The notes beneath the pieces were generated by a model, which ran no database searches, was not told the DNA's origin, and was given only the letters and a program-made list of their open reading frames with translations. DNA of 64,000 nucleotides, taken from the NCBI RefSeq assembly GCF_048403405.1, contig NZ_CP183129.1. One strand, written 5' to 3'. Position 1 is the first letter of the stretch, and each line of letters starts with the position of its first letter. Source of the DNA: Escherichia coli. Lineage in GTDB: Bacteria > Pseudomonadota > Gammaproteobacteria > Enterobacterales > Enterobacteriaceae. Both the position numbers and the translations under genes were made by a program. Below are positions 19,101 to 63,797 of the stretch, one piece after another.

Positions 19101-21203
19101 GATGTCATTTTCACGGTGATAACCAGCCCGGATTCGCCAAAAGCGAAATACTGGGGCCATATGCCGGAAACGTTTACCAGTTCGGCAGGCGTGACCTTCA
19201 AGCGCCCATTACTGGCAGCGGAAGCGACTACGGGGAGCTCGGTAAACGGTAATAATGAGACATGGTCATATATATATAGTACTCAAAAAGCGACGGCAGA
19301 TTGTTCGCTGGAATATCAACCGCGCCTCAGCGAATTGCAGGGGTTATATGACGATCACCCAAACGGGGCGTTAACGAAAGATCTGGGGTTGCCGATAGCG
19401 TCAGGAAACTGGTGGATTTATGAATTGCTTAACTCCAATGGTAGCTCCTGGTATTACCAGGTCTTTAACCTAAGTACGGGACGAGCATCATCCGCACTCT
19501 CTCCGGTTGCTCTAATGCTCTGCCTGGCACAGCCTCACTCTAAGCCGTCAAGCGTTACCCTGACTTCAATAGCATTTGATGAGACGAGAACCGCAAGTAA
19601 CGGCGGTACACCTTCGGCATCGGCGAAAAAGGGCGAGACAATCCCGTTAGTCGTGACAGTAAAAGACCAAAATGGCAACCTGCTGAGTGGCGAGAGCGTG
19701 ACGCTTCAGCGGGCACAGGCGAAAAGTCGTTCAGGAATTAGGCCCTCATCGTCGGCAGATGATCTTATTGTAGATGTCATCACACCGACAGCGGTCAGCA
19801 TTCCCTTTACTCAGGATACGGCAAAATGGCTTGGCTTTACCGGCAGTGATGGCACAGTGACGTTCAATGTTACGCAAAACGCCACCACCGGCCTGGCAAC
19901 GCCGTTTACGGTCTCGCTTGCACAAGATCCGCAGATCACGTCAAACCTGGACCTGATATTTACCGTGGTCACCAGCCCTGACTCCCTGGATGCCAACTAC
20001 TGGGGCCATATGCCAGAAACGGTGACAGCGGCAAATGGAACCGTCTTTGAACGACCGAAATTGTGGAAGGAACTGCCATCGACCTCCGGGGTAAATAAAA
20101 CCAATAACAATAATGAGGACTGGCCCTATTTTTCGTCAACCACTAAAGCAAATTCCAGCCTCAGCCCTTGTGAGGAAGCCCGGCAACCGTTGCTCAGCGA
20201 TATGAAGTCACTGTATCAACGTTATCCCAATAACACCCTTACGACGGAAACTGGCTGGTCAGTTTATTATTACTGGTGGGCGCAGGATAAGACTACAGAT
20301 GGTAAAAATCAGTCGCTCAATATGAAAGATGGCACAACGACATTGAATGGTAATGCCGCTTATCAGGCGTGTCTGGTGTCTGCGCGCGCGACGGTTTCCA
20401 GCGTCACACTGACCTCAACAGCGTTTGATGCTGACAGCCAGGCGGCGAAAGTGAAAAAAGGCGAAGCCATGCCCGTTACCGTGACGGTGAAAGACAGCGC
20501 CGGGAATACGGTACCGAATGTGGAATTTACTTTGAAACGTGGCGATGCATCGCCGCGTAACGCTGGGGCGACGTTGTATGGTGATGTGGTGGCGATGGAC
20601 GATCTCATCGTTCAGCCGTTATCTGGTTCGGCTGTTACGCTGAGTGAAAGCGGTAATACCATTAGTGGCATGACAGGCGCGGATGGGACGGCAAGTTTTA
20701 CGCTCCGCCAGGATAATACCCCTGGTTATAAAACGCCACTGACGGTTACTCTGGCTAATTACGCTTCCGCGACAGACACGCTGGACGCTATTTTTACGGT
20801 ACCAACCAGCCCGAATGTTTCCTCGGCGCACTTTTGGGGACATATGGCAGACACTGTAGTGGTGAATGGTAAATCGCTACATCGACCGTTGTTAACGACA
20901 GAATTGCCGTCCGGGGCTAATCCCGTATCCTCACCGATTATTAACTACGAAAACTGGGCTTCTGCACATATCATTGATGCCAGTAAATGGGATATTGCAA
21001 GGCAGTGTGGCAGCATAGAAAATGCACCGACATACAATGAATTAGAGTTGTTGCACACTGTTTTTAATTCACTGGGATGGCCGTCTTCACCAAGTTTTCC
21101 TTATTTGTCCTCTCAACAGTGTGGGATGGACGAAGGCACTGGAGCACAGGATTGTAGTATCACGCTAATGAATAAACCGGGTCTGGTGACCTGCTTCCAG
21201 TAA
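13161..21203 (+). CDS. ratA: giant repeat-containing surface protein (RatA-like)
   Basis: 2680-aa uninterrupted ORF with signal peptide and about 9 tandem ~283-aa repeats each carrying FTV(I/V)TSPD...WGHM. Confidence 0.8.
14050..20900 (+). repeat. tandem ~850-bp coding repeats inside ratA-like gene
   Basis: TSPD...WGHM motif recurs at approx. 14.10, 14.91, 15.72, 16.56, 17.41, 18.26, 19.12, 19.97, 20.80 kb. Confidence 0.75.
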
Positions 21204-37539: not shown

Positions 37540-37870
37540 ATCAGCAGCAGAGCGCAAAGCCGCGCAGCGCGCTCGGCAGTCCGCCGCCGGTGAGCGCAAA
37601 ATTGAACTGGTGCTGGATAAGCAGGAGCAGGAAATGCTGGCGCGGAACTGCGCCGCCCGGCGCCCTGGTCACGATCCCTATGAAATGGCCGAGTACATCG
37701 CGCTGCTGATCCGCCAGGATGATGCACGTGTGCGCGGGCGTATAAAATCGATCAGTAGAAAACGTTGCGGTAAGTGCGGCGAGAGAGTTCCAGTTAATTC
37801 ATGTCCGTGTAATGGTGACTCGCAATGCTGGGTGACTAAAGGCTGGCATGAAACGAAATTAATAGTGTGA
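37529..37870 (+). CDS. hypothetical protein with C-terminal Cys cluster
   Basis: 113-aa ORF; CGKCGERVPVNSCPCNGDSQC; stop codon lies inside the TGTGACATGTCACG palindrome. Confidence 0.45.
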   Translation: MMAKSAAERKAAQRARQSAAGERKIELVLDKQEQEMLARNCAARRPGHDPYEMAEYIALLIRQDDARVRGRIKSISRKRCGKCGERVPVNSCPCNGDSQCWVTKGWHETKLIV

Positions 37871-37920
37871 CATGTCACGAGTAGATTATGCATGATGAAT
37901 TTGATGGGTTTTGAATACTG

Positions 37921-40108: not shown

Positions 40109-40133
40109 GCCAGCTCATCGGCTGGCTGTTTGT
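40109..40133. terminator. bidirectional terminator between terL (+) and gp49-like gene (-)
   Basis: agccagc-tcatc-ggctggct hairpin with T-rich flanks on both strands. Confidence 0.5.
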
Positions 40134-40147
40134 GACATGTCACGGTG

Positions 40148-50422: not shown

Positions 50423-53169
50423 TGCCTGTTGTTCCTACTACATCCGGACGTCAGGTGCAAAGTCGTGGTGTGCAAACCGGTGGTTTTCAGATCTTCGATG
50501 TTCCTCAAGCAGATCAGGTGCTGGCGAATGTCGCAGATCAGTATGCGGTGGCATATGGTGAAGCCAGGCAGAAAGCGAATGTTGCTATGGCCCAGGAGGC
50601 GTTACTGCAATTTAACCAATTTGCAGATGACCAGATTAACAACCCTGAAAGTGGGCTGATTTCTAAACAGGGTAAAAACGCTCTTGGTCAGAGTGACGCT
50701 GTTATGAAAAATATGCAGGAAAGGGCTCAGGCATTATTAGGCTCAATTCCTGAAAGTGAGGAAAGGAATAAATTATCCTTTCAACTCCAGCAGTCTATGC
50801 AGTCTTATTACAATCAGGCACGTCGATATGAAGTTGGGCAGTTTCAGCAATTCCAAGATCAAACGTATTTGTCAGGAAATGCATTGGCTGTCACTCAGTC
50901 TGCGGGGCTATATAGCGATAACCAAGCATTTGTCGATTTAGCCAAGCAGCGATTTGAATCTATTGATCAATACGCTGATGCGCATGGGCTTCCTGATGAG
51001 TGGCGTGTTCAGCAGAAAACTCAGCTCAAGGAACAAATGGGGCAGCAAGCATGGATAGGAAATATCGCTCAAAAATACAACGAGTTTCTTCAGGTTAATG
51101 GAGAGCCAGGGGATCTTGATGGTGTGAGTCGTGCAATATCACATGGTAATTCATTGGATGCTCGTGGTTTACGTAATAATAACCCTGGTAATATTGAAGC
51201 GAGCAAATCTAACCCGTGGGAAGGTCAGATCGGTAGCGATGGACGTTTTGCAACGTTTGCTACCCCTGAGCATGGAATCCGCGCGTTGGGTAAAAATATG
51301 TTGTCTTACCAGCGTCAAGGCTATGACACCGTTAGCGAGATTGTTAATCGCTATGCTCCGGCTAGTGATGGTAATAATACTGATGCTTATATTAGGGCAT
51401 TGTGTGGTGAGCTTGGTGTTGGGGAGAATGATCAGCTTGATATCTCTAACCCAAAGACACTAGCTGCTTTATGTGCTGGGATTATTAAACACGAAAATGG
51501 CAGTATGCCTTATAGCACCGAACAGCTTGAAACTGGTATCTCGGCAGCCCTTGGTCTAACTAACCTTGATTCACCTAAGCGTTATACAGGCAATGCGGCA
51601 TTTGATGCTATGAGCCCTCAAATGCAAATACAGGCATTGAGGCAGGCTAATGAGCTGAGAAATCAGTACCGCCAGCAGTATGCGGACCAGCTTAGCACCG
51701 TAGTTAAAGATGCATATTCAGCCCTTGATGAAGGATTGAAACCTGAGAAGTTACCTTCTGAGGACGATTTTATCCGGGCCAATGGTCCGCGCATTGGCGC
51801 TATGAAGTGGAAGGATATGCAGGCGCAGATACAATATGGAGGTGTCATTGGTGCCGCTAAAGACCTCACTCCAGAAGGACGACAAGACATTCTTGAACGT
51901 TTACGTCCACAGGATCCAAACGCTCCTGGATTTGCAGCTAACCAGCAACGCTGGGAGAAAATGCAGGCCAAATTTAAAGAGATGGATAGGGAGTGGGAGA
52001 TTCAGCAGGGAAGAAACAGGTTCGTGTCTTCAATGCAAAATAACTTCCCGCTGGACCCGAACGACAAAAACAATCAGGCAGCGGTAGACCGTTATTTCGC
52101 GCAGGATATCGCGCCTTCGTTTTCCATATCTGATCCGCAGAGCATCAATACACTGGTCACCGTCACAACTAAAAGCGGCATGATACCAACTCAGGTTAAA
52201 ACAATGCTTAACAGTGGAGCAACATCAAGAGATCCTGCGCTGGTTGTCCCGATGGCAAAATTCTACGGTCAGTTATTCGATAATAATCCGGCGGCAGCGG
52301 CAACACTTGATAAAAGTACGATGGCATTTTACGGCAAGGTTTACGATTATTCCCGCGCTGGCGTGCCGGAGGATAAGGCTGTTGATATGGCTTACAGCCA
52401 GGTGTTCCAACAGGATGACCGAATGAAACAGATGCTTTCCACTGCCATGCGAGACAAAAAATATGTCGCGGCGAGGGCAACTGCTGCACAAAATAACGCC
52501 AGCAGTCTGACTTCCTTTGGTTCGTGGTCTCCGGATATTACCGATCCAGGAAAATCAAATGCGGCCTATCAGCGAGATTACCAGACAATTTACGATGCTA
52601 ACTTTGTACAGACAGGTGGCGATGCAGAACAGGCTGAGAAAATGACCAATGCCATGATCAGAACCACCTGGGGAGTTTCTACGGTTAATGGCAAAGCAGA
52701 GGTTATGAAGTATGCACCTGAGGCATTGTACGGAGTAAATAATGGTGCTGGTAACTGGATACAGGGGCAGTGGGAGCAGGAAAAACGCGAGCTTAAATCA
52801 AAATCCTTTGGCGGTCCTCGCAGTGATACGGACTTAATACTTGTTTCTGATGGCCTTACGGCAAGGGATAGGAGTTATGCTGTTATGGTTTTACAGCCTG
52901 ACGCAAACGGAGCGATAGAACCGAGAAATTATATTGGAGAAAATGGTCTCCCTGTTCGTTTCAAGCCGGATCAGCTGACATCTCCAATGTACAGGCAAAC
53001 CATTAAGTTCCAGCAACAGCGTGTTGATGAGGCTAGAGTGCGGAGAGAAGGCAATCCGCTGCCGCAGTTCAGCAATAAAGATGGATATACTCCTCCAGAT
53101 CTGACCAAACCATTCGGTTATGGTTCAGCCAATTACCTTCCGAGCAATATATACGCAGGGGGCAAATAA
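50422..53169 (+). CDS. internal virion/ejection protein (gp15-like)
   Basis: 915-aa ORF in the core-protein position; contains a conserved-looking segment GLRNNNPGNIEASKSNPWEGQ...GIRALGKNM. Confidence 0.5.
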   Translation: MPVVPTTSGRQVQSRGVQTGGFQIFDVPQADQVLANVADQYAVAYGEARQKANVAMAQEALLQFNQFADDQINNPESGLISKQGKNALGQSDAVMKNMQERAQALLGSIPESEERNKLSFQLQQSMQSYYNQARRYEVGQFQQFQDQTYLSGNALAVTQSAGLYSDNQAFVDLAKQRFESIDQYADAHGLPDEWRVQQKTQLKEQMGQQAWIGNIAQKYNEFLQVNGEPGDLDGVSRAISHGNSLDARGLRNNNPGNIEASKSNPWEGQIGSDGRFATFATPEHGIRALGKNMLSYQRQGYDTVSEIVNRYAPASDGNNTDAYIRALCGELGVGENDQLDISNPKTLAALCAGIIKHENGSMPYSTEQLETGISAALGLTNLDSPKRYTGNAAFDAMSPQMQIQALRQANELRNQYRQQYADQLSTVVKDAYSALDEGLKPEKLPSEDDFIRANGPRIGAMKWKDMQAQIQYGGVIGAAKDLTPEGRQDILERLRPQDPNAPGFAANQQRWEKMQAKFKEMDREWEIQQGRNRFVSSMQNNFPLDPNDKNNQAAVDRYFAQDIAPSFSISDPQSINTLVTVTTKSGMIPTQVKTMLNSGATSRDPALVVPMAKFYGQLFDNNPAAAATLDKSTMAFYGKVYDYSRAGVPEDKAVDMAYSQVFQQDDRMKQMLSTAMRDKKYVAARATAAQNNASSLTSFGSWSPDITDPGKSNAAYQRDYQTIYDANFVQTGGDAEQAEKMTNAMIRTTWGVSTVNGKAEVMKYAPEALYGVNNGAGNWIQGQWEQEKRELKSKSFGGPRSDTDLILVSDGLTARDRSYAVMVLQPDANGAIEPRNYIGENGLPVRFKPDQLTSPMYRQTIKFQQQRVDEARVRREGNPLPQFSNKDGYTPPDLTKPFGYGSANYLPSNIYAGGK

Positions 53170-56100
53170 TGCCGATATATGAACAGGATCCTAAAGAGTT
53201 GCTTGGCGAGGATATTCAGCAAATAGCAGCACCTGATGACAGTAATTTCTATATGGAAACACCTTCTTTGCTTTCTGCTGTGAACCCATTTACCAGTGAT
53301 CAACGCGTTCAAAGGTCTAGACAAGCAGCATTTCGTATAGATAACACGCTGGGTAGCTTTATTGCCAGTGCTCCTTTCAGTCAGTTTGACAGGGTTGAAG
53401 GATATAACCCATTTGATAACGATGCAGCAGATATTAAAGGCTATGAAGATTTTGCAGATTCGTTTATCAACTCCGGTTCGCATGAAGAAACAATGGCAAT
53501 TAAACATCGAATCGATCAGCAGAGAGCTGACATGGAATACAATTCAGGCTTGGGATTTGCTGGTACAGTCTCTTCTGTAGCAATGAGATTAGCAGATCCA
53601 TTCAATGCGATTTCTATGTTTATTCCGTTCGGCGCTGTCGTTCGTGGCGGTCGTATTGCAGAAACAGCCGGACGTTTTGCTTTAGCCAATGCTGCTGGCA
53701 GTGTTGCTTCAGAGGCCGCATTGCAGGCCACTCAGGAAGCTCGCTCACCGATGGAGAGCGTATCGAACGTTGTTGTTGATGCTCTCGTTGGTGGGATCCT
53801 TGGTGCTGGTGCACAGCTACTTGCTGGACCTAGCGCGCGCGAGGCAGTGGTTAACTCAGTAGGTAATCATTTGCGAGGTATGGATTCTCCTCAAAGCATT
53901 GGTGCAGCTCAGGTTTTCAATACCACACTCGATCAGGAACAGCTTGCTGGACTTGGACTTGCTAACAAAACGTTGAGTGTCACTCCTGCTGGCCGCTTGG
54001 CGCAATCACCATCTCTTGTTTCCCGTCAGATTAACCAGCAGCTTGCCGAAAATAACTATTTCTTCGCCAAAAATGATGAGGGGTTGGCTACGTTTACGGC
54101 AGTCGAGACTAAGATTAAGCAATACGACGCCATGCTTTATAAGCAGATGGAAGCTACTCGTGATGCTTACCAGCAGTACAGCAAATCTGTCAGCGCCCGC
54201 GGCGTGAAGAGGATGAACTTTATTGATTTCAATGAAGCTGTTGGCATGGCTATGCGCCGTGGTGATCAGAGTGATATTCCTGAGGTTTCACAAGCAGCCG
54301 CCAGAATCCGCCCCATTTTTGAGACCACAAAAGCCCGTATGCAGGAATTGGGGATCCTTCCTGAGGATATCGATGTCGTGACGACGAAGAGTTATCTTCC
54401 CCGCATTTATAAGTTCGATAAGATACTTTCCGACCGCACTGAATTCAGAGGGCGAATTGCCAACTGGATACAAGGGATTAGTGCCAAAGGTGCTGACAAA
54501 GCAGGTCAGCGAATTGAAAAGATAAATTCATTGCTAAAAACTGCAGAGGAATCAGCACCGCGCGCTGATGCTCTCGCTAGTGAAATCGCTGAAGCGGAGA
54601 AATGGTCTGGTAAAAAAATTCTACTCATGGAAGAACTGGATAAACGAAATAAGCTTATATCTCAGGAGACTGACACACAGGCGCGTCTTACAAGAATAGA
54701 AAAAGAGTTGGCCGAGACTTCATCAGAAAAACTTCAGGCAAGAATGATGAAAGAAAGCTCTGACCTTAAAACACGCCTTGATGATATAGCGCAGGCAAAG
54801 AGTGAGCTTCCTGTCTATCAGCGCCATATGGAGTTGCTGGATAATCCACGGAAATATCGTTCTGAGCTTCGCCGACTGCAAAAACGGGCAAATTCAACCA
54901 CAAGGCTGAATGCAAGCCGCGAGCGAGCACTGAAGCAGATGGAGCCTCTATCCCGAGAGGAAGCAGAGGACGCTGCTGACGAGATCGTGAATAAAATAAT
55001 AGGCGCACCTTCCGGGCTTGTACCAGCCGATATTATCCCAGAGAGACTCGTTGGTCGGGCTGGTTTCACTAAAAGCCGAACGCTGCTTATTCCTGATGAG
55101 CGTATAGAAGATTTTCTTGAATCAGATGTTAACTACATCATGGAAAGTTATCTCCGGCAGGTGGCACCAGAAATTGAGCTGACTGCGCAGTTTGGCCGTA
55201 AAGATATGGGGGAGCAAATCCGTCAGGTTAGTGAGGAATATACCCGGCTAATAAAAGAGGCTAAAACACCTAAACGACGTGCAGCTCTTGAGAAGCAACG
55301 GGAGGCTGATATTAGGGATATTACGGCTATGCGTGACCGACTGCTTGGTACTTACGGCGCACCTCAAGATCCACGCAGTTTCTTTGTTCGTGCCGGGCGA
55401 GTTGCTAGGAATATTAACTTCCTCCGTTTGCTTGGTGGAATGACCGTCTCCGCTGCAACTGATCTGATGCGACCGATGATGCAGCATGGCCTGAGAAAAT
55501 CTCTCGGACCAATGGTAAGCATGCTTAAAAATATGGACTCAGTGAAAATTGCAACCAGGGATTTGCGAGAAATGGCAGTTGGGCTTGATTATGTCCTGTC
55601 TACGCGCACAAAGGCTATAGCGGATCTTACTGACCCCTATAGCCGGAGAAGCGCCGCTGAGCGAGGTCTGAACTGGATGACGCAGAAATTCGGTAACTGG
55701 ACGCTGATGAATCAGTGGAACAGCGCACTTAAATCATGGTCTGGGATGATAGTGCAGTCGAGGATACTTGACGCGGCTCGCCAAGTTTCTGCTGGTGGCA
55801 CGCTCTCCAAAAGTGAAATGCGGAAGATGGCACAGGTCGGCATCAATGAAGATGTTCTGCGCCGAATCGGGGAGCAATTCGGGAAGCACGGAGAGGATAT
55901 GGACGGGCTGTTAACCGGGCATAGTCATCTGTGGGATGACCGTTTCGCTAGAGAGATTTTCCAGTCTGCAGTGCTGAAAGATGTAGACTCAGTGATTGTA
56001 ACGCCTGGCGTAGGTGATACACCGCTGTTTTTTAGTAAAGAAGGCTGGAAGATGATCACGCAGTTCAAAACGTTTATCTTCGCACAGCATAACAGGGTGC

Positions 56101-56558
56101 TAGTATCTGGTATCCAGCAGGGCGATGCTGCATTCTATCTTGGTGCGCTTGGCACGATTGCGCTTGGCTCAATGGTCTATATGATGAAACAGAAGTTAAG
56201 CGGTCGCGATATCGACTACAGCTGGAATAACCTTGTGAAAGAGGGGATCGACCGGGGCGGAATGCTTGGCTGGCTCTCTGAGCCGCTGAATACCGTTGAG
56301 AACATAAGCGGCGGTAGGTTTGGTCTTGGCGCGATGTTTGGTGCGCCTCCGGTATCAAGGTTTCAGAGTCGTAATGCTATTGGTGCTTTACTTGGTCCTA
56401 CCTTTGATCTTGGCGGTGATGCCGCGACGGTTGCAAATGGTGTACTTAACGGAGAATTTGACAGCCAGCAAACCCACGCTGTCCGTAAAATGCTACCTTT
56501 TCAGAATCTGTGGGCGATATCACCATTACTAAATAAAGTTGAAGAGCAGATGAAATAG
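53169..56558 (+). CDS. internal virion/ejection protein (gp16-like)
   Basis: 1129-aa ORF, largest core protein, precedes tailspike region. Confidence 0.5.
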   Translation: MPIYEQDPKELLGEDIQQIAAPDDSNFYMETPSLLSAVNPFTSDQRVQRSRQAAFRIDNTLGSFIASAPFSQFDRVEGYNPFDNDAADIKGYEDFADSFINSGSHEETMAIKHRIDQQRADMEYNSGLGFAGTVSSVAMRLADPFNAISMFIPFGAVVRGGRIAETAGRFALANAAGSVASEAALQATQEARSPMESVSNVVVDALVGGILGAGAQLLAGPSAREAVVNSVGNHLRGMDSPQSIGAAQVFNTTLDQEQLAGLGLANKTLSVTPAGRLAQSPSLVSRQINQQLAENNYFFAKNDEGLATFTAVETKIKQYDAMLYKQMEATRDAYQQYSKSVSARGVKRMNFIDFNEAVGMAMRRGDQSDIPEVSQAAARIRPIFETTKARMQELGILPEDIDVVTTKSYLPRIYKFDKILSDRTEFRGRIANWIQGISAKGADKAGQRIEKINSLLKTAEESAPRADALASEIAEAEKWSGKKILLMEELDKRNKLISQETDTQARLTRIEKELAETSSEKLQARMMKESSDLKTRLDDIAQAKSELPVYQRHMELLDNPRKYRSELRRLQKRANSTTRLNASRERALKQMEPLSREEAEDAADEIVNKIIGAPSGLVPADIIPERLVGRAGFTKSRTLLIPDERIEDFLESDVNYIMESYLRQVAPEIELTAQFGRKDMGEQIRQVSEEYTRLIKEAKTPKRRAALEKQREADIRDITAMRDRLLGTYGAPQDPRSFFVRAGRVARNINFLRLLGGMTVSAATDLMRPMMQHGLRKSLGPMVSMLKNMDSVKIATRDLREMAVGLDYVLSTRTKAIADLTDPYSRRSAAERGLNWMTQKFGNWTLMNQWNSALKSWSGMIVQSRILDAARQVSAGGTLSKSEMRKMAQVGINEDVLRRIGEQFGKHGEDMDGLLTGHSHLWDDRFAREIFQSAVLKDVDSVIVTPGVGDTPLFFSKEGWKMITQFKTFIFAQHNRVLVSGIQQGDAAFYLGALGTIALGSMVYMMKQKLSGRDIDYSWNNLVKEGIDRGGMLGWLSEPLNTVENISGGRFGLGAMFGAPPVSRFQSRNAIGALLGPTFDLGGDAATVANGVLNGEFDSQQTHAVRKMLPFQNLWAISPLLNKVEEQMK

Positions 56559-56559
56559 G

Positions 56560-57411
56560 ATGAAAAAAATAAATTTGTTTTTTGGCATAGTGCTTTCAAT
56601 AGTCTCTGTAAATCCTACAGCTGCCAGTTCATTGCAATGCAATAAGGATAACTTTGATGCATGCAAAACGTGCGAACAATTATCAAAGGCTATCGACTTA
56701 AAAGAACCTAATCGTGGCGATTACTATAGAGGGGCTTTATGGAATGGGCTTTACGCCTCTTATGTAATTAATTGCCCTGTGGTTGCAGAGAAGTTACTGA
56801 GCCATGGTGCTATACCATCATATGGCGGATATATGGGGTCTATGGGGGCGGTTCTGACAGGAAAATGGCCTCATAACAATGAATCAATAAATCTTTCATG
56901 GGCAGATTTGCTTATAAAACATGGATTTGATGTTAATAGGCATACGGGGAATTATAAATCAGCTACTGAAGTATGGGCTATAGATAAAAAACAGATTGAA
57001 TATAAGTCAGTTTTTGACAAGTTAATTCAATCCAGCGAAGTAAAACCACTCGATCCTTCAAGAAATTTAGAATGGTGTGCGTCTGAAGGGTATCGCTCAG
57101 TTGTCGTTTATTCCCTTAACTCATGTATAGAAAATGCTATAAAACGTTTGGATGACGGTGTTTCTTCAGCGTCTGATATTTCATCAGCAGCCGTAAATTC
57201 CTGTACTAGCGATGTAGAAAATTTCAATAAGCATTTGGCATGCAAAGCAGCTGTTAAAGAAAACTCTGATAAAGAGAGAAGCAACGTTTACCAGTTATTA
57301 ACCAGTGATAGTCAAATGAATAAAAATGTTATTGATATGCTGAAGGAAAGAAATATTGAAACGGTTCTTGAATTTAGAGCTGAAAATCGATCAGCGAAAA
57401 CTGCACAGTGA
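56560..57411 (+). CDS. secreted moron protein, low GC, possible ankyrin-like repeats
   Basis: 283-aa ORF with signal peptide MKKINLFFGIVLSIVSVNPTAAS; markedly AT-rich relative to flanking late genes; weak ankyrin-like segments (VAEKLLSHGA, ADLLIKHGFDVN). Confidence 0.55.
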   Translation: MKKINLFFGIVLSIVSVNPTAASSLQCNKDNFDACKTCEQLSKAIDLKEPNRGDYYRGALWNGLYASYVINCPVVAEKLLSHGAIPSYGGYMGSMGAVLTGKWPHNNESINLSWADLLIKHGFDVNRHTGNYKSATEVWAIDKKQIEYKSVFDKLIQSSEVKPLDPSRNLEWCASEGYRSVVVYSLNSCIENAIKRLDDGVSSASDISSAAVNSCTSDVENFNKHLACKAAVKENSDKERSNVYQLLTSDSQMNKNVIDMLKERNIETVLEFRAENRSAKTAQ

Positions 57412-57418
57412 TCAAACA

Positions 57419-57442
57419 GGCCGCTTTCGCGGCCTTGTTTTT
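57419..57442. terminator. terminator hairpin (ggccgctttcgcggcc + T-run), copy 1
   Basis: ggccgctttcgcggcc followed by ttgttttt; identical hairpin recurs at 60670. Confidence 0.7.
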
Positions 57443-57601
57443 AACGAATGCCACCGCCGCCAGGGCGGGAATCCGCAGAACGCCCACCGCAGCGGGAGCC
57501 GTCAGCGGCAGTATCGCTGTCGTGCTGACAACGACCGGCAAAGGCCTGAGTTGAAGCTACCAGAGACAACAAAACGAACAGTGCAGCAAATGCTTTTTTC
57601 A
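57441..57601 (-). CDS. small secreted peptide (hypothetical)
   Basis: 53-aa ORF MKKAFAALFVLLSLVASTQA... with signal peptide; short, weak RBS. Confidence 0.3.
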
Positions 57602-57673
57602 TTGTGAAATTTCCATCTATAAGCCACCTCAATGTGGCGTCAATGAGTGTAGCACTGACTTTTGTTTCGTCCA

Positions 57674-57697
57674 CAAAAAAGCCCGCAGCGCGGGCTT
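57674..57697 (-). terminator. rho-independent terminator after small membrane protein gene
   Basis: agcccgc-agc-gcgggct hairpin with A-run on + strand (U-tract on - strand). Confidence 0.6.
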
Positions 57698-57929
57698 ACT
57701 TTTCTTCAGGTTTGTTGTCTTCAGATTTCTTCTTGATGCTTGGTTTTTGTCTAAGACCGAAAATACCAGCCACTGCAACAACTGTACCGATCACTGTGCC
57801 AGCTAGAACTTCATGACCTGTTAAACCTAATAATGTTGCACAAGCTACTGTAAAAATAGTTGCACTCAGGCCAAACCACTGCCCACGTTTATCTCTATTA
57901 ATAGCCCCGTCAAGTGCCTTTTCCTCCAT
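57696..57929 (-). CDS. small two-TM membrane protein
   Basis: 77-aa ORF; hydrophobic segments WFGLSATIFTVACATLLGL and VIGTVVAVAGIFGL; Lys-rich C-terminus. Confidence 0.45.
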   Translation of the reverse strand: MEEKALDGAINRDKRGQWFGLSATIFTVACATLLGLTGHEVLAGTVIGTVVAVAGIFGLRQKPSIKKKSEDNKPEEK

Positions 57930-58169
57930 TTTCTGGCGGTGAGCAAACTCCTTCTCCGTCAGCTGGAAGATGCGTTCGGGGGCATCAGGTAAAATATCCT
58001 GATACCCGCGAAGCAGATAGGGGGAGGAAGCGGACCCTGAAACGCATGGTGAGCGACAACTATCTCCTGAATTTCAGGGCGATCAAGAACTCTTGTGAAG
58101 GCATCTGGGTGTTGAATGATCTCGTTACTTAGCCCTTCCTCAACTTCCTCGAACTCAGTTTCTTCGTTA

Positions 58170-58496
58170 TCACTTGGTTGCCCAATAGATTTTTGCATAT
58201 TTGTCGAAGGACATTCCTTTAGCTTCTGGTTTTCCTCTTGCATTTGAGTTTTTCCCTGTCACTATTGCCCATTTTCCGCCAGCAGGCGCTGCAATTTTTT
58301 TTCCGTTCTTTACTATATATTCAGCATAAACACGATTTTCTGACCGTCTGAGATCGTCTCCGACCATATTCATGTCTCTTGATATAACTTTGACGACAGA
58401 GTCTCGGTTTAAAGCCTTGGCATAGTTGGAGCCAGGAACGATACCCAAAGGGGTGCCAGACTCTATAGCCAGCTCCTTGACATATCTTCTGCTCAT
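58170..58496 (-). CDS. hypothetical protein (possible small DNA-binding protein)
   Basis: 108-aa ORF from ATG 58496 (MSRRYVKELAIESG...); a perfect TTACC-N5-GGTAA site lies 22 bp upstream. Confidence 0.4.
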   Translation of the reverse strand: MSRRYVKELAIESGTPLGIVPGSNYAKALNRDSVVKVISRDMNMVGDDLRRSENRVYAEYIVKNGKKIAAPAGGKWAIVTGKNSNARGKPEAKGMSFDKYAKIYWATK

Positions 58497-58517
58497 ATGA
58501 ACCTCAACCAATCGACT

Positions 58518-58532
58518 TTACCAATCGGGTAA
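58518..58532. promoter_or_regulatory. perfect TTACC-N5-GGTAA palindrome
   Basis: TTACCAATCGGGTAA upstream of the 58496 gene. Confidence 0.5.
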
Positions 58533-58617
58533 TTTTAAACATGAGTATAATGCTTTTAACTGCAACGAGTGTAAACAATTATTGATAATTGTAGGCACAT
58601 CCCTGTGCCGCCGCCCG

Positions 58618-59310
58618 TCAGAAGAACCCTGCTTTGTCGTTGATGTACTCCGCGTGCGTCTGGATATCACGCAGGCATTTGCTCACACCGACGATGTAGC
58701 AGAACATGGTGGTCAACTCCGCCGCCGCGCCCGATACGTCGTGCCCGTCTTCCTGTAACTGGTTTAGCAGATTCATCAGCAGTGAGTTCTCCGTCAGGCC
58801 GAGAACACCAGACGGCGAATGAATCAGGCTGCGGTAGCCGGGCTTCAGTGGGGCGCTGTAGGTTTTGTTCTCTACCTTCATTGCCTGCATCACTGCTGAT
58901 GCTGTGGCGTTGGCTACCTGGTCGGCAACCATCTTTATGCGTTCTTCCTGCGGGAGCGAGTTTTTAATGTAACTTCCGGTGCGGCGGATCTGAGGAAGAA
59001 CCTCACCTGTAACCCATTCAAGAAATCTGAATGCTCTCGTTCCCTCAGTCATTGCCTCTTTGCAACGCAGAATAAGGATGTAGAGACCTGATTCTGAAAC
59101 GATGGATAGTTCTTGTATTCCACCAGGGGTCTGTATTGAATACAGCCCCTTTTTGTTCCAGCCTTTTTTATCAAGTTTTCTCGCTTGTGTAACATCAATA
59201 TTCAAAGCATTGCACACATCTTTGGTGACAAACCAAGGTTCTCCGTCAATCATGAACATACGGATCTGGCAGGATGACTCAAAGGAAAAGATGGAAGGTT
59301 TGGTATTCAT
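58618..59310 (-). CDS. antirepressor, Bro-N domain plus C-terminal antirepressor domain
   Basis: N-terminus MNTKPSIFSFESSCQIRMFMIDGEPWFVTKDVCNALNI is a Bro-N/KilA-N-type signature; C-terminal domain has a paralog at 60693-60950. Confidence 0.7.
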   Translation of the reverse strand: MNTKPSIFSFESSCQIRMFMIDGEPWFVTKDVCNALNIDVTQARKLDKKGWNKKGLYSIQTPGGIQELSIVSESGLYILILRCKEAMTEGTRAFRFLEWVTGEVLPQIRRTGSYIKNSLPQEERIKMVADQVANATASAVMQAMKVENKTYSAPLKPGYRSLIHSPSGVLGLTENSLLMNLLNQLQEDGHDVSGAAAELTTMFCYIVGVSKCLRDIQTHAEYINDKAGFF

Positions 59311-59577
59311 AGCGATCACCTTTGTAGTTAGGTTAATCACCACCGCTGAGACCAATCAGATGGTGGTGAACTGTGCAGAGTTGGTCTTACCGGCTACAAA
59401 GGAACCCGGCGCACCTTTCGGTGCCCCCACACAGCCCACCATAGAATAGGTGCGCTTTACACATAAAAAAACCGCTTATGCGGCATATGTGCCTCTGTAG
59501 TAATCCGGGAGACCAATCCCGGCACTGGATTTTGCCAGTGCCCGATTACTATGGCACAAGAGGAGTGCAATGTAAAT

Positions 59578-59592
59578 TTACCGAAAAGGTAA
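59578..59592. promoter_or_regulatory. perfect TTACC-N5-GGTAA palindrome about 270 bp upstream of antirepressor
   Basis: TTACCGAAAAGGTAA. Confidence 0.5.
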
Positions 59593-59753
59593 TAATAAAT
59601 GCATAACTCACGTTATTTCAACCCTATATGGTTTGATTTATCCCATTTCAGAAAATACCTGCCTATTTTTTTGCCAGTATGCGTATACTTTCGATAGAAT
59701 GTTTACCCTAGAGGTAGTTGGGGGTGCCCGTGAACACGAAGAGAGCTACAGTA

Positions 59754-60173
59754 ATGCAGCATTTGAGGAAATCAGAAAAAAATAAAGACCATGAAATATT
59801 GAGTAAGGCCATTGTTCGGGCTTCCAATAATACTGTTATACCTCATGCTGAAGAGTCTGGACAGAAATTTCTTATTCGGTATTTCACTGAAAATAGTGCA
59901 GTTGAGGAGATTTTAAAACATCAGGGAGGGGAATTTAAATGTGGAAAACTGGCAGATTATGTTCGTCGTGAAACGTCTGAACAAGAAGTATATTATGCTG
60001 ATATTAATCATAAGTCAGGTGTGAAAATTGTAATAGGCTATTACACAACTCCCAAAAATGTTATGCATGAGGTCCCAAAGATGTCCGTCGAGAAATCTCA
60101 TGCAATCTCGCGCAGGATGTTTGCACGCACTGCCGAAGATATGGCTCAGGAGCTCTACGACGATGCTGAATAA
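59754..60173 (+). CDS. hypothetical protein, candidate partner of YafO-like toxin
   Basis: About 140 aa from ATG 59754; stop overlaps the start of the downstream gene (ATGCTGAATAA); low GC. Confidence 0.5.
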   Translation: MQHLRKSEKNKDHEILSKAIVRASNNTVIPHAEESGQKFLIRYFTENSAVEEILKHQGGEFKCGKLADYVRRETSEQEVYYADINHKSGVKIVIGYYTTPKNVMHEVPKMSVEKSHAISRRMFARTAEDMAQELYDDAE

Positions 60174-60668
60174 ATTCCAGGGGTTGGTTCACCCTGGAAT
60201 TTTTGGGAAGGACCCTGAGCTAATACCTATCAAAAACGCGTTCATAGATCACTGGCGCTACGGTCATCATAAGGATTTCGGAAAGGACACTCTGTTTCGG
60301 GATCCACCGAAAGAAATGCTGGAATATCACATACGCCACGTTCACGTAAACATCGGAAACTATACTGACAAGTTTGGTGAGAGCGGTACGGACAATGCTG
60401 GAAAAACTGGGCGTCTGGGAAGAAAGACAAGACCACTAACAAGCATAAAAAGATCCCAACCAGTGACGTGTATGTGATTTATCTGGTCACATCTGAACGC
60501 CATGCCTTCCTTCTGGATTATTGGGATGAACCAGCACATAAGACAGTAGAAATTGACGAGCAGAAGCAAAAATTAGTTGTCGAGTGTGACAGAATTTTGC
60601 GGCTGAAAAAGTTAGAATCCATGCCGCGCGATGCTAGTTTGTGGGACCCAGAATTTTACGACTGTTAA
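60163..60668 (+). pseudogene. YafO-like toxin gene interrupted by a frameshift (or sequencing error)
   Basis: N-terminal part in one frame (to 60477: ...FGKDTLFRDPPKEMLEYHIRHVHV) and C-terminal part in another (60381-60668: ...VYVIYLVTSERHAFLLDYWDEPAHK) both resemble E. coli YafO as I recall it; frames overlap 60381-60477. Confidence 0.45.
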
Positions 60669-60669
60669 T

Positions 60670-60694
60670 GGCCGCTTTCGCGGCCTTTAAATTT
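60670..60694. terminator. terminator hairpin (ggccgctttcgcggcc), copy 2
   Basis: Identical 16-bp hairpin to 57419-57434, followed by tttaaattt. Confidence 0.65.
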
Positions 60695-60950
60695 ACCGGG
60701 TTTGTTTTCGTAATTGTTCGGCACAATAGTCGAGATGTGTTTGCAGATCCCGCATAGACATCTGTGAGCTGGTGACGTAGTTAATCAGTGCAGTCAGTTC
60801 GGCAAGTGGGCCATCGACATTAAATCCATCCTTATCGAGATCCCGGAGTAATTTCATCAAGTGCGATCCCTCCACCAGTGACCTGACGCCTCCCGGCGTG
60901 TGAATCCTTTCGGTAAATCCGTCTTCCAGTGGATAGTGATACTGCTGCAT
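60693..60950 (-). CDS. free-standing antirepressor C-terminal-domain paralog
   Basis: About 85 aa from internal ATG (MQQYHYPLEDG...); shares L..LL..L..DG..V.G..AELT.....Y.......RD.QTH..Y pattern with the C-terminus of the 58618-59310 antirepressor. Confidence 0.5.
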   Translation of the reverse strand: MQQYHYPLEDGFTERIHTPGGVRSLVEGSHLMKLLRDLDKDGFNVDGPLAELTALINYVTSSQMSMRDLQTHLDYCAEQLRKQTR

Positions 60951-61026
60951 CTTATCTTCTCCATGCAATAACTGTATGTTTATACAGTAACAAATAATTT
61001 GTTTGCTATCCAGCACGTTTTGCAAA

Positions 61027-61041
61027 TTACCTGAAAGGTAA
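61027..61041. promoter_or_regulatory. perfect TTACC-N5-GGTAA palindrome between ant-C paralog and tailspike
   Basis: TTACCTGAAAGGTAA; ATGTGGTT motif at 61074-61081. Confidence 0.5.
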
Positions 61042-61145
61042 TATCTATTCGTATTTACAGCCTTTCTATCCATATGTGGTTTTTCAGGTAATAGAATAAC
61101 CAGATATGCGGCGCAACGGGTGCTGCGACTATCTGGAGATTTAAC

Positions 61146-63797
61146 ATGACGGTCTCAACCGAAGTTGACCACAACGAATACACTGGTAACGGAGCTACGA
61201 CATCATTTCCGTATACCTTCCGTATTTTCAAAAAATCCGACCTGGTTGTTCAGGTGTCTGACCTGAACGGGAACGTAACAGAATTGGTTCTGGATACTGA
61301 CTACACAGTAACCAATGCTGGAGGATATAATGGCGGTAATGTAATTCTGTCGAAGGCGTTGGCTAACGGTTATCATATTTCTATATCACGAGAGCTCCCG
61401 GTTACGCAGGATACTGATTTGCGTAATCAGGGTAAGTTCTTCGCTGAGGTACATGAAGACGCGTTCGATAAACTGACAATGCTTATTCAAAAGTGTTTTT
61501 CATGGATGAGGTTAGCACTTATAAAACCAAGCATTCTGGCTAACTATTATGATGCAAAAAATAATAAGATATCAAATCTAGCAAATGCCACTGACAGAAA
61601 CGATGCTGTCAATAAAGGTTATGTTGATGATCTTTTTACTGGAGGTGTAACGCCTACACCTAACAGCGTTAAAAACGATATTTTTACAAATCACCAAAGA
61701 AAGATTGTAGCTACGATGCCGCTTCTTTTTCCTGAATATGATGCGATTATGGCTGCTAACCCGTCAGCAACTTATATGTATCCTCAAGGATTCTGCGTTA
61801 GCGAAGATTTGATATACATCACTTATCCATTTGAGCCTAAACAGACGAATAATGTCGTCGCAGTATTTAACATATCTGGTATTTATCAAGGTTATTTCTA
61901 TGTTCAGGCTGGCGGCCCAGGCTTCGCTGCTGAAGGAATCGTGGTTACGTCAGACTATGGCCCCAAAAAAATGTTTGTTGGTCACACAAACGGAATACTG
62001 CGTGAATTTAATATGGAGGGGGCATTATACGGAAGCAATCTGCCTCTTGTACAAAACCATGATGTTGGATTATTCAACCAGTTCAGCTACAGAAGAGGTA
62101 TATGGCTCGTTGAGCAGAATGCGCCAGAAGTAGGACAGAAAATCACAAGAACTGTACTTGCAGTGTTCGACAGTGGTTTCAATCGCCTGTCAACTATAAC
62201 GCTGCCGTTACATGATGTTGGGTATGTAACTAAAAGCACCTCACCTTATGCGCCTTATTTCAACAAGCGTCAGGGTATTGCGGTAGGTGATAACTACTTT
62301 GTCTGCGGCTATGGCGGCTTCATAGCTGATGGGGCAGGAAGCGCAGGATATAACGAATATCAGGGCAGCAAAGTTTTTAACCCTGACGGTACAAAGCGAA
62401 CTGAATCAATGCTTCATCCTCAGGCCATGATGGATTTAATGAAAGCCGCAGGATTGAACGTCACTCGCATAGAAAATGAAGGCGTTTGTGTTTCTCAGGA
62501 TGGAAAATCCATTTATTCACTTTACATTCATCAGGAAAGAACTGGCTCTGAACCTTACAATTCAGGTTTGGTTATTTTCGAAGATTTCTCCACTGATAAA
62601 GATGCTATCGATTTTACACCTGCATCCAGGCTTTACCGCGGATTTGATATCGATCACGCGAGCATTGGGGTATATCCCCGTAGTGCGAAGGGGATTGTTA
62701 ACCCTGTAGATGGTACGTTGTTCACTAACATGACTGAAATTCTTCGCTATATGCAGGAGATGAGTCAGAAGGCATTTAATTTTTACACAGGGACTGTCAG
62801 CATTGCTGATATATCTGGCGTGGCAATCCCTTCCAGCACATATGTTGAAATACTGAATGCGAATAATCAGACTTTTATAGTCAACTATTATTCATCTGAT
62901 AGTGGTATTAGTTATTTGGTTGCAACTAATCCTTCTGGTGACTTTGTATTTGTGCGCCAGCGACCGGCACAGTGGGCATCTAACTTAACCATTCAGCAAA
63001 ACGCAGATCCTGATACAAACCAATTAAACCGCATCACTGCATCATCATATGCCGGTGCAACTACAAACTCTCAGAAAATATTGGTCCTTGACCAGCAGGC
63101 TACAGCTAGCGCAAATAGCTTGGTATTGGGCGGTAGTTCTTCTGTGTTTAGGTCTGCCACCACGGTGGATATTGCATGCAACAGCGACCCGACAGCATTG
63201 GGAGGAACCATACGCTGGCGGTTTTATGATACAGGTCTTCGCCCGTTTGCTGACAATACCTATAATTTTGGTCAGGCATCGTTTCGTATTAAAGACGCCT
63301 ACTTTGCAAATGCCCCAACCGTTTCATCAGATGCCACGCTGAAAACCAATCCCGAGGCAATATCAGATTTAAGTGAAATGCTTTCTTCTGATAGAGACAG
63401 CATTCTTGATGCCTGGGGCGATATTTCTGTTGTGGCGTATCGATGGCTCGACGCTATATCCATGAAGGGCGATGGTGCCAGATGGCATTTTGGCGTCATG
63501 GCTCAGCAGGTAAGGGATGTATTCTTGGCGCACGGAATTGATGGAACCAGATTTGGCCTTCTTTGCTATGACGAGTGGGATGATATTTTTGAGCCGGTAA
63601 TCGCGACTAAAGAGATTACCGATACGTCTGGTGAGTTGGTCACCGTCGAATATGACACCGGAGAACAGAGGCTGGTTAAAAAAGCGGGTAGTTCATGGGG
63701 TATACGGCCTGACCAGTGCGCTTGGCTTGAGGCTGCATATCAGCGCCGTCGATGCGATCGTATTGAAGAGCGACTCGAACTATTGGAATCAAAATAA
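61146..63797 (+). CDS. tailspike/tail fiber with N-terminal podovirus adaptor domain and C-terminal intramolecular chaperone (peptidase S74-like) domain
   Basis: 883-aa ORF; N-terminus resembles T7 gp17 N-terminal domain pattern; C-terminal ~130 aa resemble self-cleaving chaperone domains of endosialidase-type tailspikes. Confidence 0.8.
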   Translation: MTVSTEVDHNEYTGNGATTSFPYTFRIFKKSDLVVQVSDLNGNVTELVLDTDYTVTNAGGYNGGNVILSKALANGYHISISRELPVTQDTDLRNQGKFFAEVHEDAFDKLTMLIQKCFSWMRLALIKPSILANYYDAKNNKISNLANATDRNDAVNKGYVDDLFTGGVTPTPNSVKNDIFTNHQRKIVATMPLLFPEYDAIMAANPSATYMYPQGFCVSEDLIYITYPFEPKQTNNVVAVFNISGIYQGYFYVQAGGPGFAAEGIVVTSDYGPKKMFVGHTNGILREFNMEGALYGSNLPLVQNHDVGLFNQFSYRRGIWLVEQNAPEVGQKITRTVLAVFDSGFNRLSTITLPLHDVGYVTKSTSPYAPYFNKRQGIAVGDNYFVCGYGGFIADGAGSAGYNEYQGSKVFNPDGTKRTESMLHPQAMMDLMKAAGLNVTRIENEGVCVSQDGKSIYSLYIHQERTGSEPYNSGLVIFEDFSTDKDAIDFTPASRLYRGFDIDHASIGVYPRSAKGIVNPVDGTLFTNMTEILRYMQEMSQKAFNFYTGTVSIADISGVAIPSSTYVEILNANNQTFIVNYYSSDSGISYLVATNPSGDFVFVRQRPAQWASNLTIQQNADPDTNQLNRITASSYAGATTNSQKILVLDQQATASANSLVLGGSSSVFRSATTVDIACNSDPTALGGTIRWRFYDTGLRPFADNTYNFGQASFRIKDAYFANAPTVSSDATLKTNPEAISDLSEMLSSDRDSILDAWGDISVVAYRWLDAISMKGDGARWHFGVMAQQVRDVFLAHGIDGTRFGLLCYDEWDDIFEPVIATKEITDTSGELVTVEYDTGEQRLVKKAGSSWGIRPDQCAWLEAAYQRRRCDRIEERLELLESK

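Follow-up and report, generated by a model that had tools for sequence, protein, structure and literature searches.

The right part of a 64-kb stretch of an Escherichia coli genome (contig NZ_CP183129.1; the whole 64,000-nt stretch is called the window below) is an epsilon15/phiV10-like (Uetakevirus) prophage, and it raises the question of why one short hairpin, GGCCGCTTTCGCGGCC, occurs there twice on the + strand, at positions 57419-57434 and 60670-60685, 3,251 nt from each other. The initial annotation had described the pair as identical over 18 bp with the flanking tt, copy 1 following a gene for a secreted protein and copy 2 a YafO-like gene, and our analysis confirmed both points: copy 1 begins 7 nt past the stop codon of a 283-aa signal-peptide open reading frame (ORF), and copy 2 begins 1 nt past the stop codon of the YafO-annotated frame (end 60668). 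We consider it probable that both hairpins are copies of a single Rho-independent terminator of the Uetakevirus lineage, which would now serve as a short-homology joint for modules.

The rightward virion operon, the last gene of which encodes a 1129-aa DUF919 protein, is followed by a low-G+C gene of 283 aa (slot 1) and by hairpin 1. Then comes a leftward operon encoding a small membrane protein, a DUF2335 protein, a hypothetical protein, and a Bro-N antirepressor, and after it a rightward cassette (slot 2) with a promoter-like site, an antitoxin-like gene, and the YafO-annotated gene, which leads to hairpin 2, a leftward p24/gp19-like gene, and the tailspike gene. The hairpins occupy gaps of 29 nt (copy 1) and 24 nt (copy 2), each between convergent genes:

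57419..57444, + strand: hairpin 1 (57419-57434) with its T-tract TTGTTTTTAA (terminator scan, phiV10 terminator annotation, and conservation)
60670..60695, + strand: hairpin 2 (60670-60685) with its tail TTTAAATTTA, 7 nt from the stop codon of the convergent p24-like gene (terminator scan)

The two copies share 18 nt (…CCTT), the sole perfect repeat of at least 14 nt between 56 and 62 kb, and the sequences flanking this identity are unrelated between them. No other match to GGCCGCTTTCGCGGCC was found in the window, even with up to 2 mismatches, and 0.02 were expected from shuffles; this expectation, together with the comparative evidence, ruled out a chance repeat. A host repeat of the repetitive extragenic palindrome or bacterial interspersed mosaic element (REP/BIME) type was ruled out too, since the window, of which 27 kb are host DNA, has no third copy and the element measures only 16-18 nt.

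The stem comprises 6 bp, all of them G/C, and closes a loop of 4 nt. The hairpin alone showed a folding energy of -11.6 kcal/mol as read on the + strand; on the - strand, with GAAA as its loop, the value was -12.5 kcal/mol. Folded with the flanks, hairpin 1 reached -16.5 kcal/mol and hairpin 2 -14.3 kcal/mol. Both copies were called terminator-like by the consensus terminator scan, tail criterion included, and both combine a stable G/C stem-loop with a U-rich 3' tract, downstream of a gene and in the orientation of that gene. They thus resemble intrinsic terminators in having a G/C stem-loop and T-tract directly after a stop codon, and copy 1 corresponds to a phiV10 feature in both sequence and position. 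Unlike a typical intrinsic terminator, the hairpin is used twice in one phage, its stem is invariant, and the tail of the second copy is weaker. From this geometry we infer that both copies would act as intrinsic terminators with an insulating role. Insulation, which the initial annotation had also raised, is plausible both on this geometry and on the terminator annotation of phiV10.

Relatives of the prophage are numerous, with epsilon15/phiV10-like prophages in roughly 10% of complete E. coli genomes. Phage EC.W1-9 matches positions 56.4-61.3 kb of the window at 99.4%, and patchy matches to the prophage were found in phiV10, TL-2011b, ZX5, phiv142-3, and others. In phiV10 (DQ126339), positions 19505-19522 hold the same 16-mer in the same place as copy 1, annotated as a terminator, an annotation that is itself a prediction. 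Hairpin 1 was exact as well in TL-2011b, phiv142-3, Tyrion (Enterobacter), and a Klebsiella phage, and the upstream gene differs in each; slot 1 is filled in relatives by other genes (p21, orf12-like, or Arc/Ant). The Salmonella epsilon15-like phages VB_ST_E15 and 65FD showed the same stem with the loop AATA, in a layout with a single hairpin. In most relatives, a perfect 12-bp palindrome, GTGACATGTCAC, stands 1-3 nt before hairpin 1; it is missing from hairpin 1 of the window and from both hairpin-2 contexts. Copy 1 appears, on this comparison, to be a lineage-conserved intrinsic terminator ending the rightward virion operon and slot 1. The search of other prophages suggested by the initial annotation thus showed a hairpin conserved in the Uetakevirus lineage, the stem of which also follows differing cargos at slot 2.

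The distribution of the two copies was scored on 80 loci gathered via the p24-like protein, blind to the hairpin, of which 72 were informative. Hairpin 1 alone was present in 41 of them, both hairpins in 25, and in the other six a single hairpin lies directly between the slot-1 gene and p24, the interval being absent. This single-hairpin layout was also found in the isolated phage PAS61 and in the YDC107 prophage; in these two and in 13 IMG/VR loci, a copy-1 left flank is joined directly to a copy-2 right flank. PAS61 presents, in order, a phiV10-type left flank, the palindrome, the hairpin, and the right flank of hairpin 2 of the window, and the YDC107 prophage has a PAS61-like layout. Aligned to the window, the single-hairpin loci show homology from exactly 60670 onward. 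The antirepressor interval is therefore dispensable, and the two hairpin positions are the exact limits of what is present or missing.

The stem stays constant across relatives while the loops vary. The loop of hairpin 1 is almost always TTTC and that of hairpin 2 was TCTT in 25/25 sampled two-hairpin relatives; the two loops differ in all 25, so that the identical pair of the window is a minority state. The identity of the two terminators, noted in the initial annotation, therefore holds in the window but not in these relatives. Both loops occur among the single-hairpin forms of the sample (TTTC in three, TCTT in three); they differ at two positions, and the single-step intermediates TTTT and TCTC were not seen in the sampled relatives.

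Around this one stem, at least six left-flank types combine with at least four right-flank types, and the left-flank types p21, orf12-like, and Ant pair with both kinds of right flank and with both loops, TTTC and TCTT. In about a third of the E. coli records, taken from a spread sample of 60 of 529, the break falls exactly at the 5' edge of the hairpin. The YafO cassette was found with the loop TTTC in the window, EC.W1-9, and FDAARGOS_497, and with TCTT in APEC O18 and two IMG/VR loci. The haplotype of the window is that of EC.W1-9 as far as the loop of hairpin 2 (60677, 60679) and that of APEC O18 from 60689 on, which places the switch in the 3' arm of hairpin 2 or in the following three T. 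In addition, relatives carrying Ant have, immediately before the palindrome and hairpin 1, a stretch of approximately 20 nt that is similar to the slot-2 cargo gene at its 3' end, a score reached by 5 of 5,000 shuffles. The hairpin is therefore a short conserved sequence between alternative non-homologous segments, with recombinant breakpoints mapping within it, and the two copies appear to be related and to act as recombination joints. As to the earlier proposal that the pair is a footprint of recombination, the single-hairpin relatives, which join copy-1 left flanks to copy-2 right flanks, and the haplotype switch in copy 2 speak for it, but identity alone is no proof.

Conserved boundary sequences at module junctions are familiar from the classic lambdoid literature. 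Such boundary or linker sequences in temperate phages have been proposed as recombination hotspots (PMC10408124). The hairpin is like them a short conserved island between non-homologous modules that joins varied left and right partners; unlike them, the island is here a predicted terminator hairpin of 16-18 bp, and crossovers can be placed on either side of its loop.

Hairpin 2 closes the cassette of slot 2, which comprises the following features:

59622..59641, + strand: AACCCTATATGGTTTGATTT at the left border of slot 2, in which the p24-like 3' end recurs in degenerate form (aligned to phiV10 and 118UI)
59671..60668, + strand: slot-2 cassette (ORFs, promoter scan)
59671-59700, + strand: promoter-like site of the cassette, with 10/12 consensus matches, such sites being overall no commoner in the region than in shuffles
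59730-60173, + strand: antitoxin-like gene (ORF)
60163-60668, + strand: YafO-annotated toxin gene, frameshifted by a 1-nt deletion near 60391 (ORFs of 139 aa and 66 aa)

Of 5,426 complete E. coli genomes, 38 have the YafO cassette; EC.W1-9 has it too, and phiV10, ZX5, and phiv142-3 lack it. The cassette has a discrete insertion point, with borders defined by alignment to relatives. The full 3' end of the p24-like gene follows hairpin 2 (60696-60712), so that, with AACCCTATATGGTTTGATTT at the left border, the slot-2 cargo and hairpin 2 are flanked by an imperfect direct repeat. TL-2011b and E. coli 118UI, VE-V11-M, and 2013C_3678 have another cargo at slot 2, a hypothetical gene of 243 aa, after which the same stem with the loop TCTT or TCTA and then the same right flank were found, and phiV10-type phages have neither cargo nor hairpin at this point. 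Hairpin 2 is, by these comparisons, a border of the slot rather than an appendage of YafO. No homology links the slot-1 Ant protein to the 243-aa protein of slot 2.

The simplest history would have the two copies descend from the single hairpin seen in phages without the antirepressor module, and would have them brought together, most simply, when a one-hairpin phage recombined with a single-hairpin phage. With its invariant stem, the sequence of 16-18 bp would now function as a joint of short homology where modules can be swapped, converted, or lost, and the identical pair of the window would represent a derived, minority YafO haplotype, which exchange or gene conversion inside hairpin 2 best explains. 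The role of the hairpin in recombination would most simply be a passive one, made up of short homology and selection for intact genes in very short gaps, and RecE/RecT-type proteins, such as those encoded by phiV10 and 65FD, are possible catalysts of the exchange.

Several observations weigh against this history. The exact deletion product expected from the window (283-aa gene, hairpin, and right flank of copy 2) was found in 0 of 5,426 complete E. coli genomes, and the assumed parent of hairpin 2, with a YafO or 243-aa cargo in slot 1, was not found in the phage collection. In E. coli, all matches to the YafO cassette (at least 80% of the query, including 220 nt of the slot-2 left flank) lie in slot 2. 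The gaps span only 24-29 nt, and selection for intact genes would, even if no crossover were guided by homology, leave the surviving junctions at or close to the hairpin. Compared with hairpin 1, hairpin 2 has the weaker U-tract, as AAA interrupts its tail (UUUAAAUUU), and we infer in which direction the evolutionary events ran. Finally, as detailed next, the hairpin is a generic and often reused terminator, so its identity alone is no proof of common descent.

That unrelated terminators could have settled independently on the same favoured G/C stem and tetraloop, leaving an identity without historical information, has to be weighed with scans of viral contigs and species-representative bacterial genomes, which give lower bounds (at least 120 each). 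At least 120 viral contigs contain the 16-mer, about half of the 120 listed from IMG/VR being unrelated to Uetakeviruses; the 18-mer occurs in at least 120 bacterial genomes, with about 9 expected by chance (2 × 298 Gb / 4^18), and none of those listed has Uetakevirus flanks. The exact 18-mer is the ppiD-ybaV terminator in Citrobacter, Enterobacter, Klebsiella, Serratia, Dickeya, and others, it lies downstream of argG in Citrobacter, and the ppiD terminator of E. coli is a form with one mismatch, GGTCGCTTTCGCGGCC, present in 5,414 of 5,426 genomes and followed by TTTTCC (as seen in E. coli 90-3040). A ubiquitous host terminator, which the initial annotation had regarded as fatal to the idea, therefore exists, and the recombination reading survives on flanks and synteny only; it is that evidence, and not identity, which carries the argument. 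Convergence is nevertheless quite unlikely on account of it, as the left side of the single-hairpin relatives matches that of copy 1 without a break and their right side that of copy 2, the two loop variants change backgrounds, and the Ant-type relatives show the similarity left of the hairpin. Moreover, Enterobacterales representatives carrying the 18-mer have it only once or twice per genome, from which we estimate a chance of about 1% for a second independent copy within 3 kb of one phage. The hairpins might also be not mainly terminators but stabilisers of mRNA 3' ends, processing sites, or a protein-binding site, which would fit the AAA in the tail of hairpin 2, the stable C(GAAA)G tetraloop of the - strand form, and a stem kept invariant under varying loops, as sequence-specific recognition could require; we judge this very improbable, given that they stand right after stop codons with T-rich tails and in the direction of the upstream genes, that the sequence also serves a housekeeping gene as its terminator, and that phiV10 has its terminator annotation; Rfam families cover neither hairpin.

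A further explanation grants recombination and makes the hairpin, in most relatives together with the palindrome GTGACATGTCAC, an active site that itself promotes exchange, with the cassette logic of an integron and no dedicated integrase. It could do so as a cruciform or replication-slippage hotspot, by hairpin-induced template switching, or through a preference of the phage RecET or a nuclease for it. Cassettes would then be captured, converted, and deleted there by preference, and swapped at a rate far above that of ordinary 16-bp homologies. The breakpoints within 6-9 nt of arms on either side of the loop, the same stem ending each rightward cassette, the palindrome kept beside hairpin 1 across genera and recurring beside other terminators, and the RecET genes of the lineage are all consistent with it. 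However, no dedicated recombinase is annotated from the virion end to the tailspike in the relatives examined, the integrase and RecET of the lineage lying elsewhere in the genome, and the palindrome is lacking at hairpin 1 of the window and in both hairpin-2 contexts. The comparison with integron attC sites goes as far as successive cassettes each ending in a similar inverted repeat; on inspection, the hairpin is perfect and of 16 nt (vs 57-141 bp), with neither R/L core sites (R''/L''/L'/R') nor extrahelical bases, and there is no integron integrase. Passive short homology with selection for intact genes explains the same pattern, and an active site is in our view unlikely; if it were true, a podovirus would possess a small integron-like cassette system needing no dedicated integrase. 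The passive joint remains the reading that we prefer.

As terminators, the two copies would each close a rightward accessory slot where its transcription meets a leftward gene. Hairpin 1 would end the virion operon and slot 1, sparing the RNA-controlled antirepressor operon antisense transcripts, and on the - strand, with its GAAA tetraloop, it may help to end the leftward operon together with a bidirectional hairpin at 57679-57697. Hairpin 2 would end the YafO cassette, so that no antisense transcription would run through the p24-like gene into the tailspike and lysis genes.

The region between the hairpins had been called moron cargo, a description that does not hold for most of it: about two thirds is the leftward antirepressor operon of the phage itself, with the following features:

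57441..57602, - strand: gene for a small secreted or membrane-anchored protein of 53 aa, last of the leftward operon and convergent on hairpin 1 (ORF; 162-nt coding sequence annotated in relatives)
57679..57697, both strands: terminator-like hairpin AAGCCCGC-AGC-GCGGGCTT inside the leftward operon (terminator scan; -12.9 kcal/mol)
57696..58244, - strand: DUF2335 membrane-protein gene, frameshifted (split ORFs; the intact 182-aa relative matches PF10097)
58171..58511, - strand: hypothetical gene of about 108-113 aa (ORF; annotated in relatives)
58618..59355, - strand: Bro-N antirepressor gene, the start of which is annotated at about 59311 in relatives (Pfam PF02498, E = 2e-13)
59359-59446, - strand: C4 antisense RNA (Rfam RF01695, 78.6 bits, gathering score 45)
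59465-59541, - strand: isrK-like RNA (Rfam RF01394, 74.7 bits, gathering score 50)
59502-59554, - strand: a1/b1 target, weaker match (RF03163, 39.9 bits, below the gathering score of 46.7)

The C4 and isrK RNAs and the weak a1/b1 match all lie just upstream of the Bro-N gene on the - strand, which identifies most of the interval as an RNA-controlled antirepressor operon of the P1 type, and promoter-like sites were found on the same strand at 59621-59592 and 59576-59548. This is a control region of the P1-immI/Gifsy-1-IsrK type in a podovirus prophage, judging from the RNA matches upstream of a Bro-N antirepressor gene that it shares with P1/P7 immI and Gifsy-1 IsrK. Unlike the P1 and Gifsy-1 systems, it is in a podovirus and lies between the virion operon and the tailspike, a comparison that concerns the content of the interval and not the hairpins. 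In the sister phage ZX5, overexpression of the Bro-N 'ORF4 anti-repressor' shifts the phage toward lysis (PMC9782041). An operator-like inverted repeat, TTACC-N5-GGTAA within AATTTACCGAAAAGGTAATA, was found at 59575-59594 and 61024-61043, upstream of the antirepressor operon in one case and of the p24-like gene in the other, and it suggests that these two leftward units share a regulator. No Pfam or NCBIfam match was found for the small membrane protein.

Morons are autonomous promoter-gene-terminator units of prophages (PMC3594210), and within the interval only the YafO cassette looks like one, with a promoter-like site, two genes, its own predicted terminator, and a patchy presence among close relatives; outside the interval, the 283-aa gene looks like another. 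Unlike in morons, most of the sequence between the hairpins is the antirepressor operon, and the terminator is not specific to the cassette, as the stem closes other slot-2 cargos. The G+C content across the YafO cassette is 0.38-0.48, vs 0.41-0.47 nearby. The name YafO is that of RefSeq: no Pfam or NCBIfam match to a YafO family profile was obtained, even with an intact 168-aa relative, and the protein shows 32% identity to the YafO-annotated protein of TL-2011b. The antitoxin-like protein has no Pfam or NCBIfam match either. The frameshift near 60391 was seen by comparison with EC.W1-9, FDAARGOS_497, and others, and that of the DUF2335 gene is a 1-nt deletion near 58019 (vs EC.W1-9 and FDAARGOS_497); the two deletions represent either pseudogenes in this prophage or sequencing errors.

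With hairpins that probably act as joints, the locus offers a case at nucleotide resolution of a predicted terminator of 16-18 bp as both a transcriptional boundary and a seam for gaining, swapping, and losing modules, among them the antirepressor region and the toxin cassette. It illustrates known principles well and presents no new kind of element, as terminator-bounded morons and conserved junction sequences are already established. The seam can be used for annotating epsilon15/phiV10-like prophages of E. coli and for predicting which accessory genes move as a group, and it points to insulated sites for insertions when Uetakevirus-type phages are engineered.

The remaining features belong to the genes on either side of the interval:

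53169..56558, + strand: last large gene of the rightward virion operon, 1129 aa (ORF list; RefSeq name DUF919 family protein in FDAARGOS_497 and APEC O18)
56560..57411, + strand: slot-1 accessory gene, 283 aa, signal peptide, low G+C (ORF; composition)
60693..60950, - strand: p24/epsilon15 gp19-like gene, 85 aa (ORF; phiV10 comparison)
61146..63797, + strand: tailspike gene, the first that read-through from slot 2 would meet (ORF; tail fiber/tailspike annotation in relatives)

The 283-aa gene has a G+C content of 0.35-0.41 (window positions 56350-57400), vs about 0.47-0.53 nearby, and its protein has no Pfam or NCBIfam match. With a start 2 nt past the stop codon of the virion gene before it, the gene has no evident promoter of its own. 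Its stop codon and 3' flank also precede the hairpin in the Klebsiella-type context (locus L119). The Bro-N antirepressor has a C-terminal domain to which the whole-length p24-like protein of 85 aa shows homology (43% identity, E = 1e-20), and the same domain forms the C-terminal end of the TL-2011b Ant protein.

The palindrome GTGACATGTCAC is the sole repeated 12-bp palindrome of the window, where it was found at 37867-37878 and 40132-40143; it was found at 2262 and 19493 in phiV10 and at 19880 and 39566 in 65FD. Its sites include one just upstream of the small terminase gene and one right after the terminator ending the large terminase gene, and it is conserved from E. coli to Salmonella phages.

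Two IMG/VR loci were unusual. In L194 (2778261673_000008), which resembled the parent with a slot-1 cargo but was ruled out as such because it has only a variant of hairpin 1, the sequence reads GGGCCGCTTTCGCGCCC, with a>g just upstream and G>C in the 3' arm. These paired changes produce a shifted, bulged, and weaker helix (-7.8 vs -11.6 kcal/mol), the only compensatory-looking change of the stem that was seen, and one that counts in favour of a terminator. In L205 (3300045988_096329), which has a normal hairpin 1 whose loop is AAAA, a block made up of the Ant end, the palindrome, the hairpin, and the small membrane gene is present as an additional, inverted copy, 1,085 nt upstream of where p24 ends; the block has moved as a unit.

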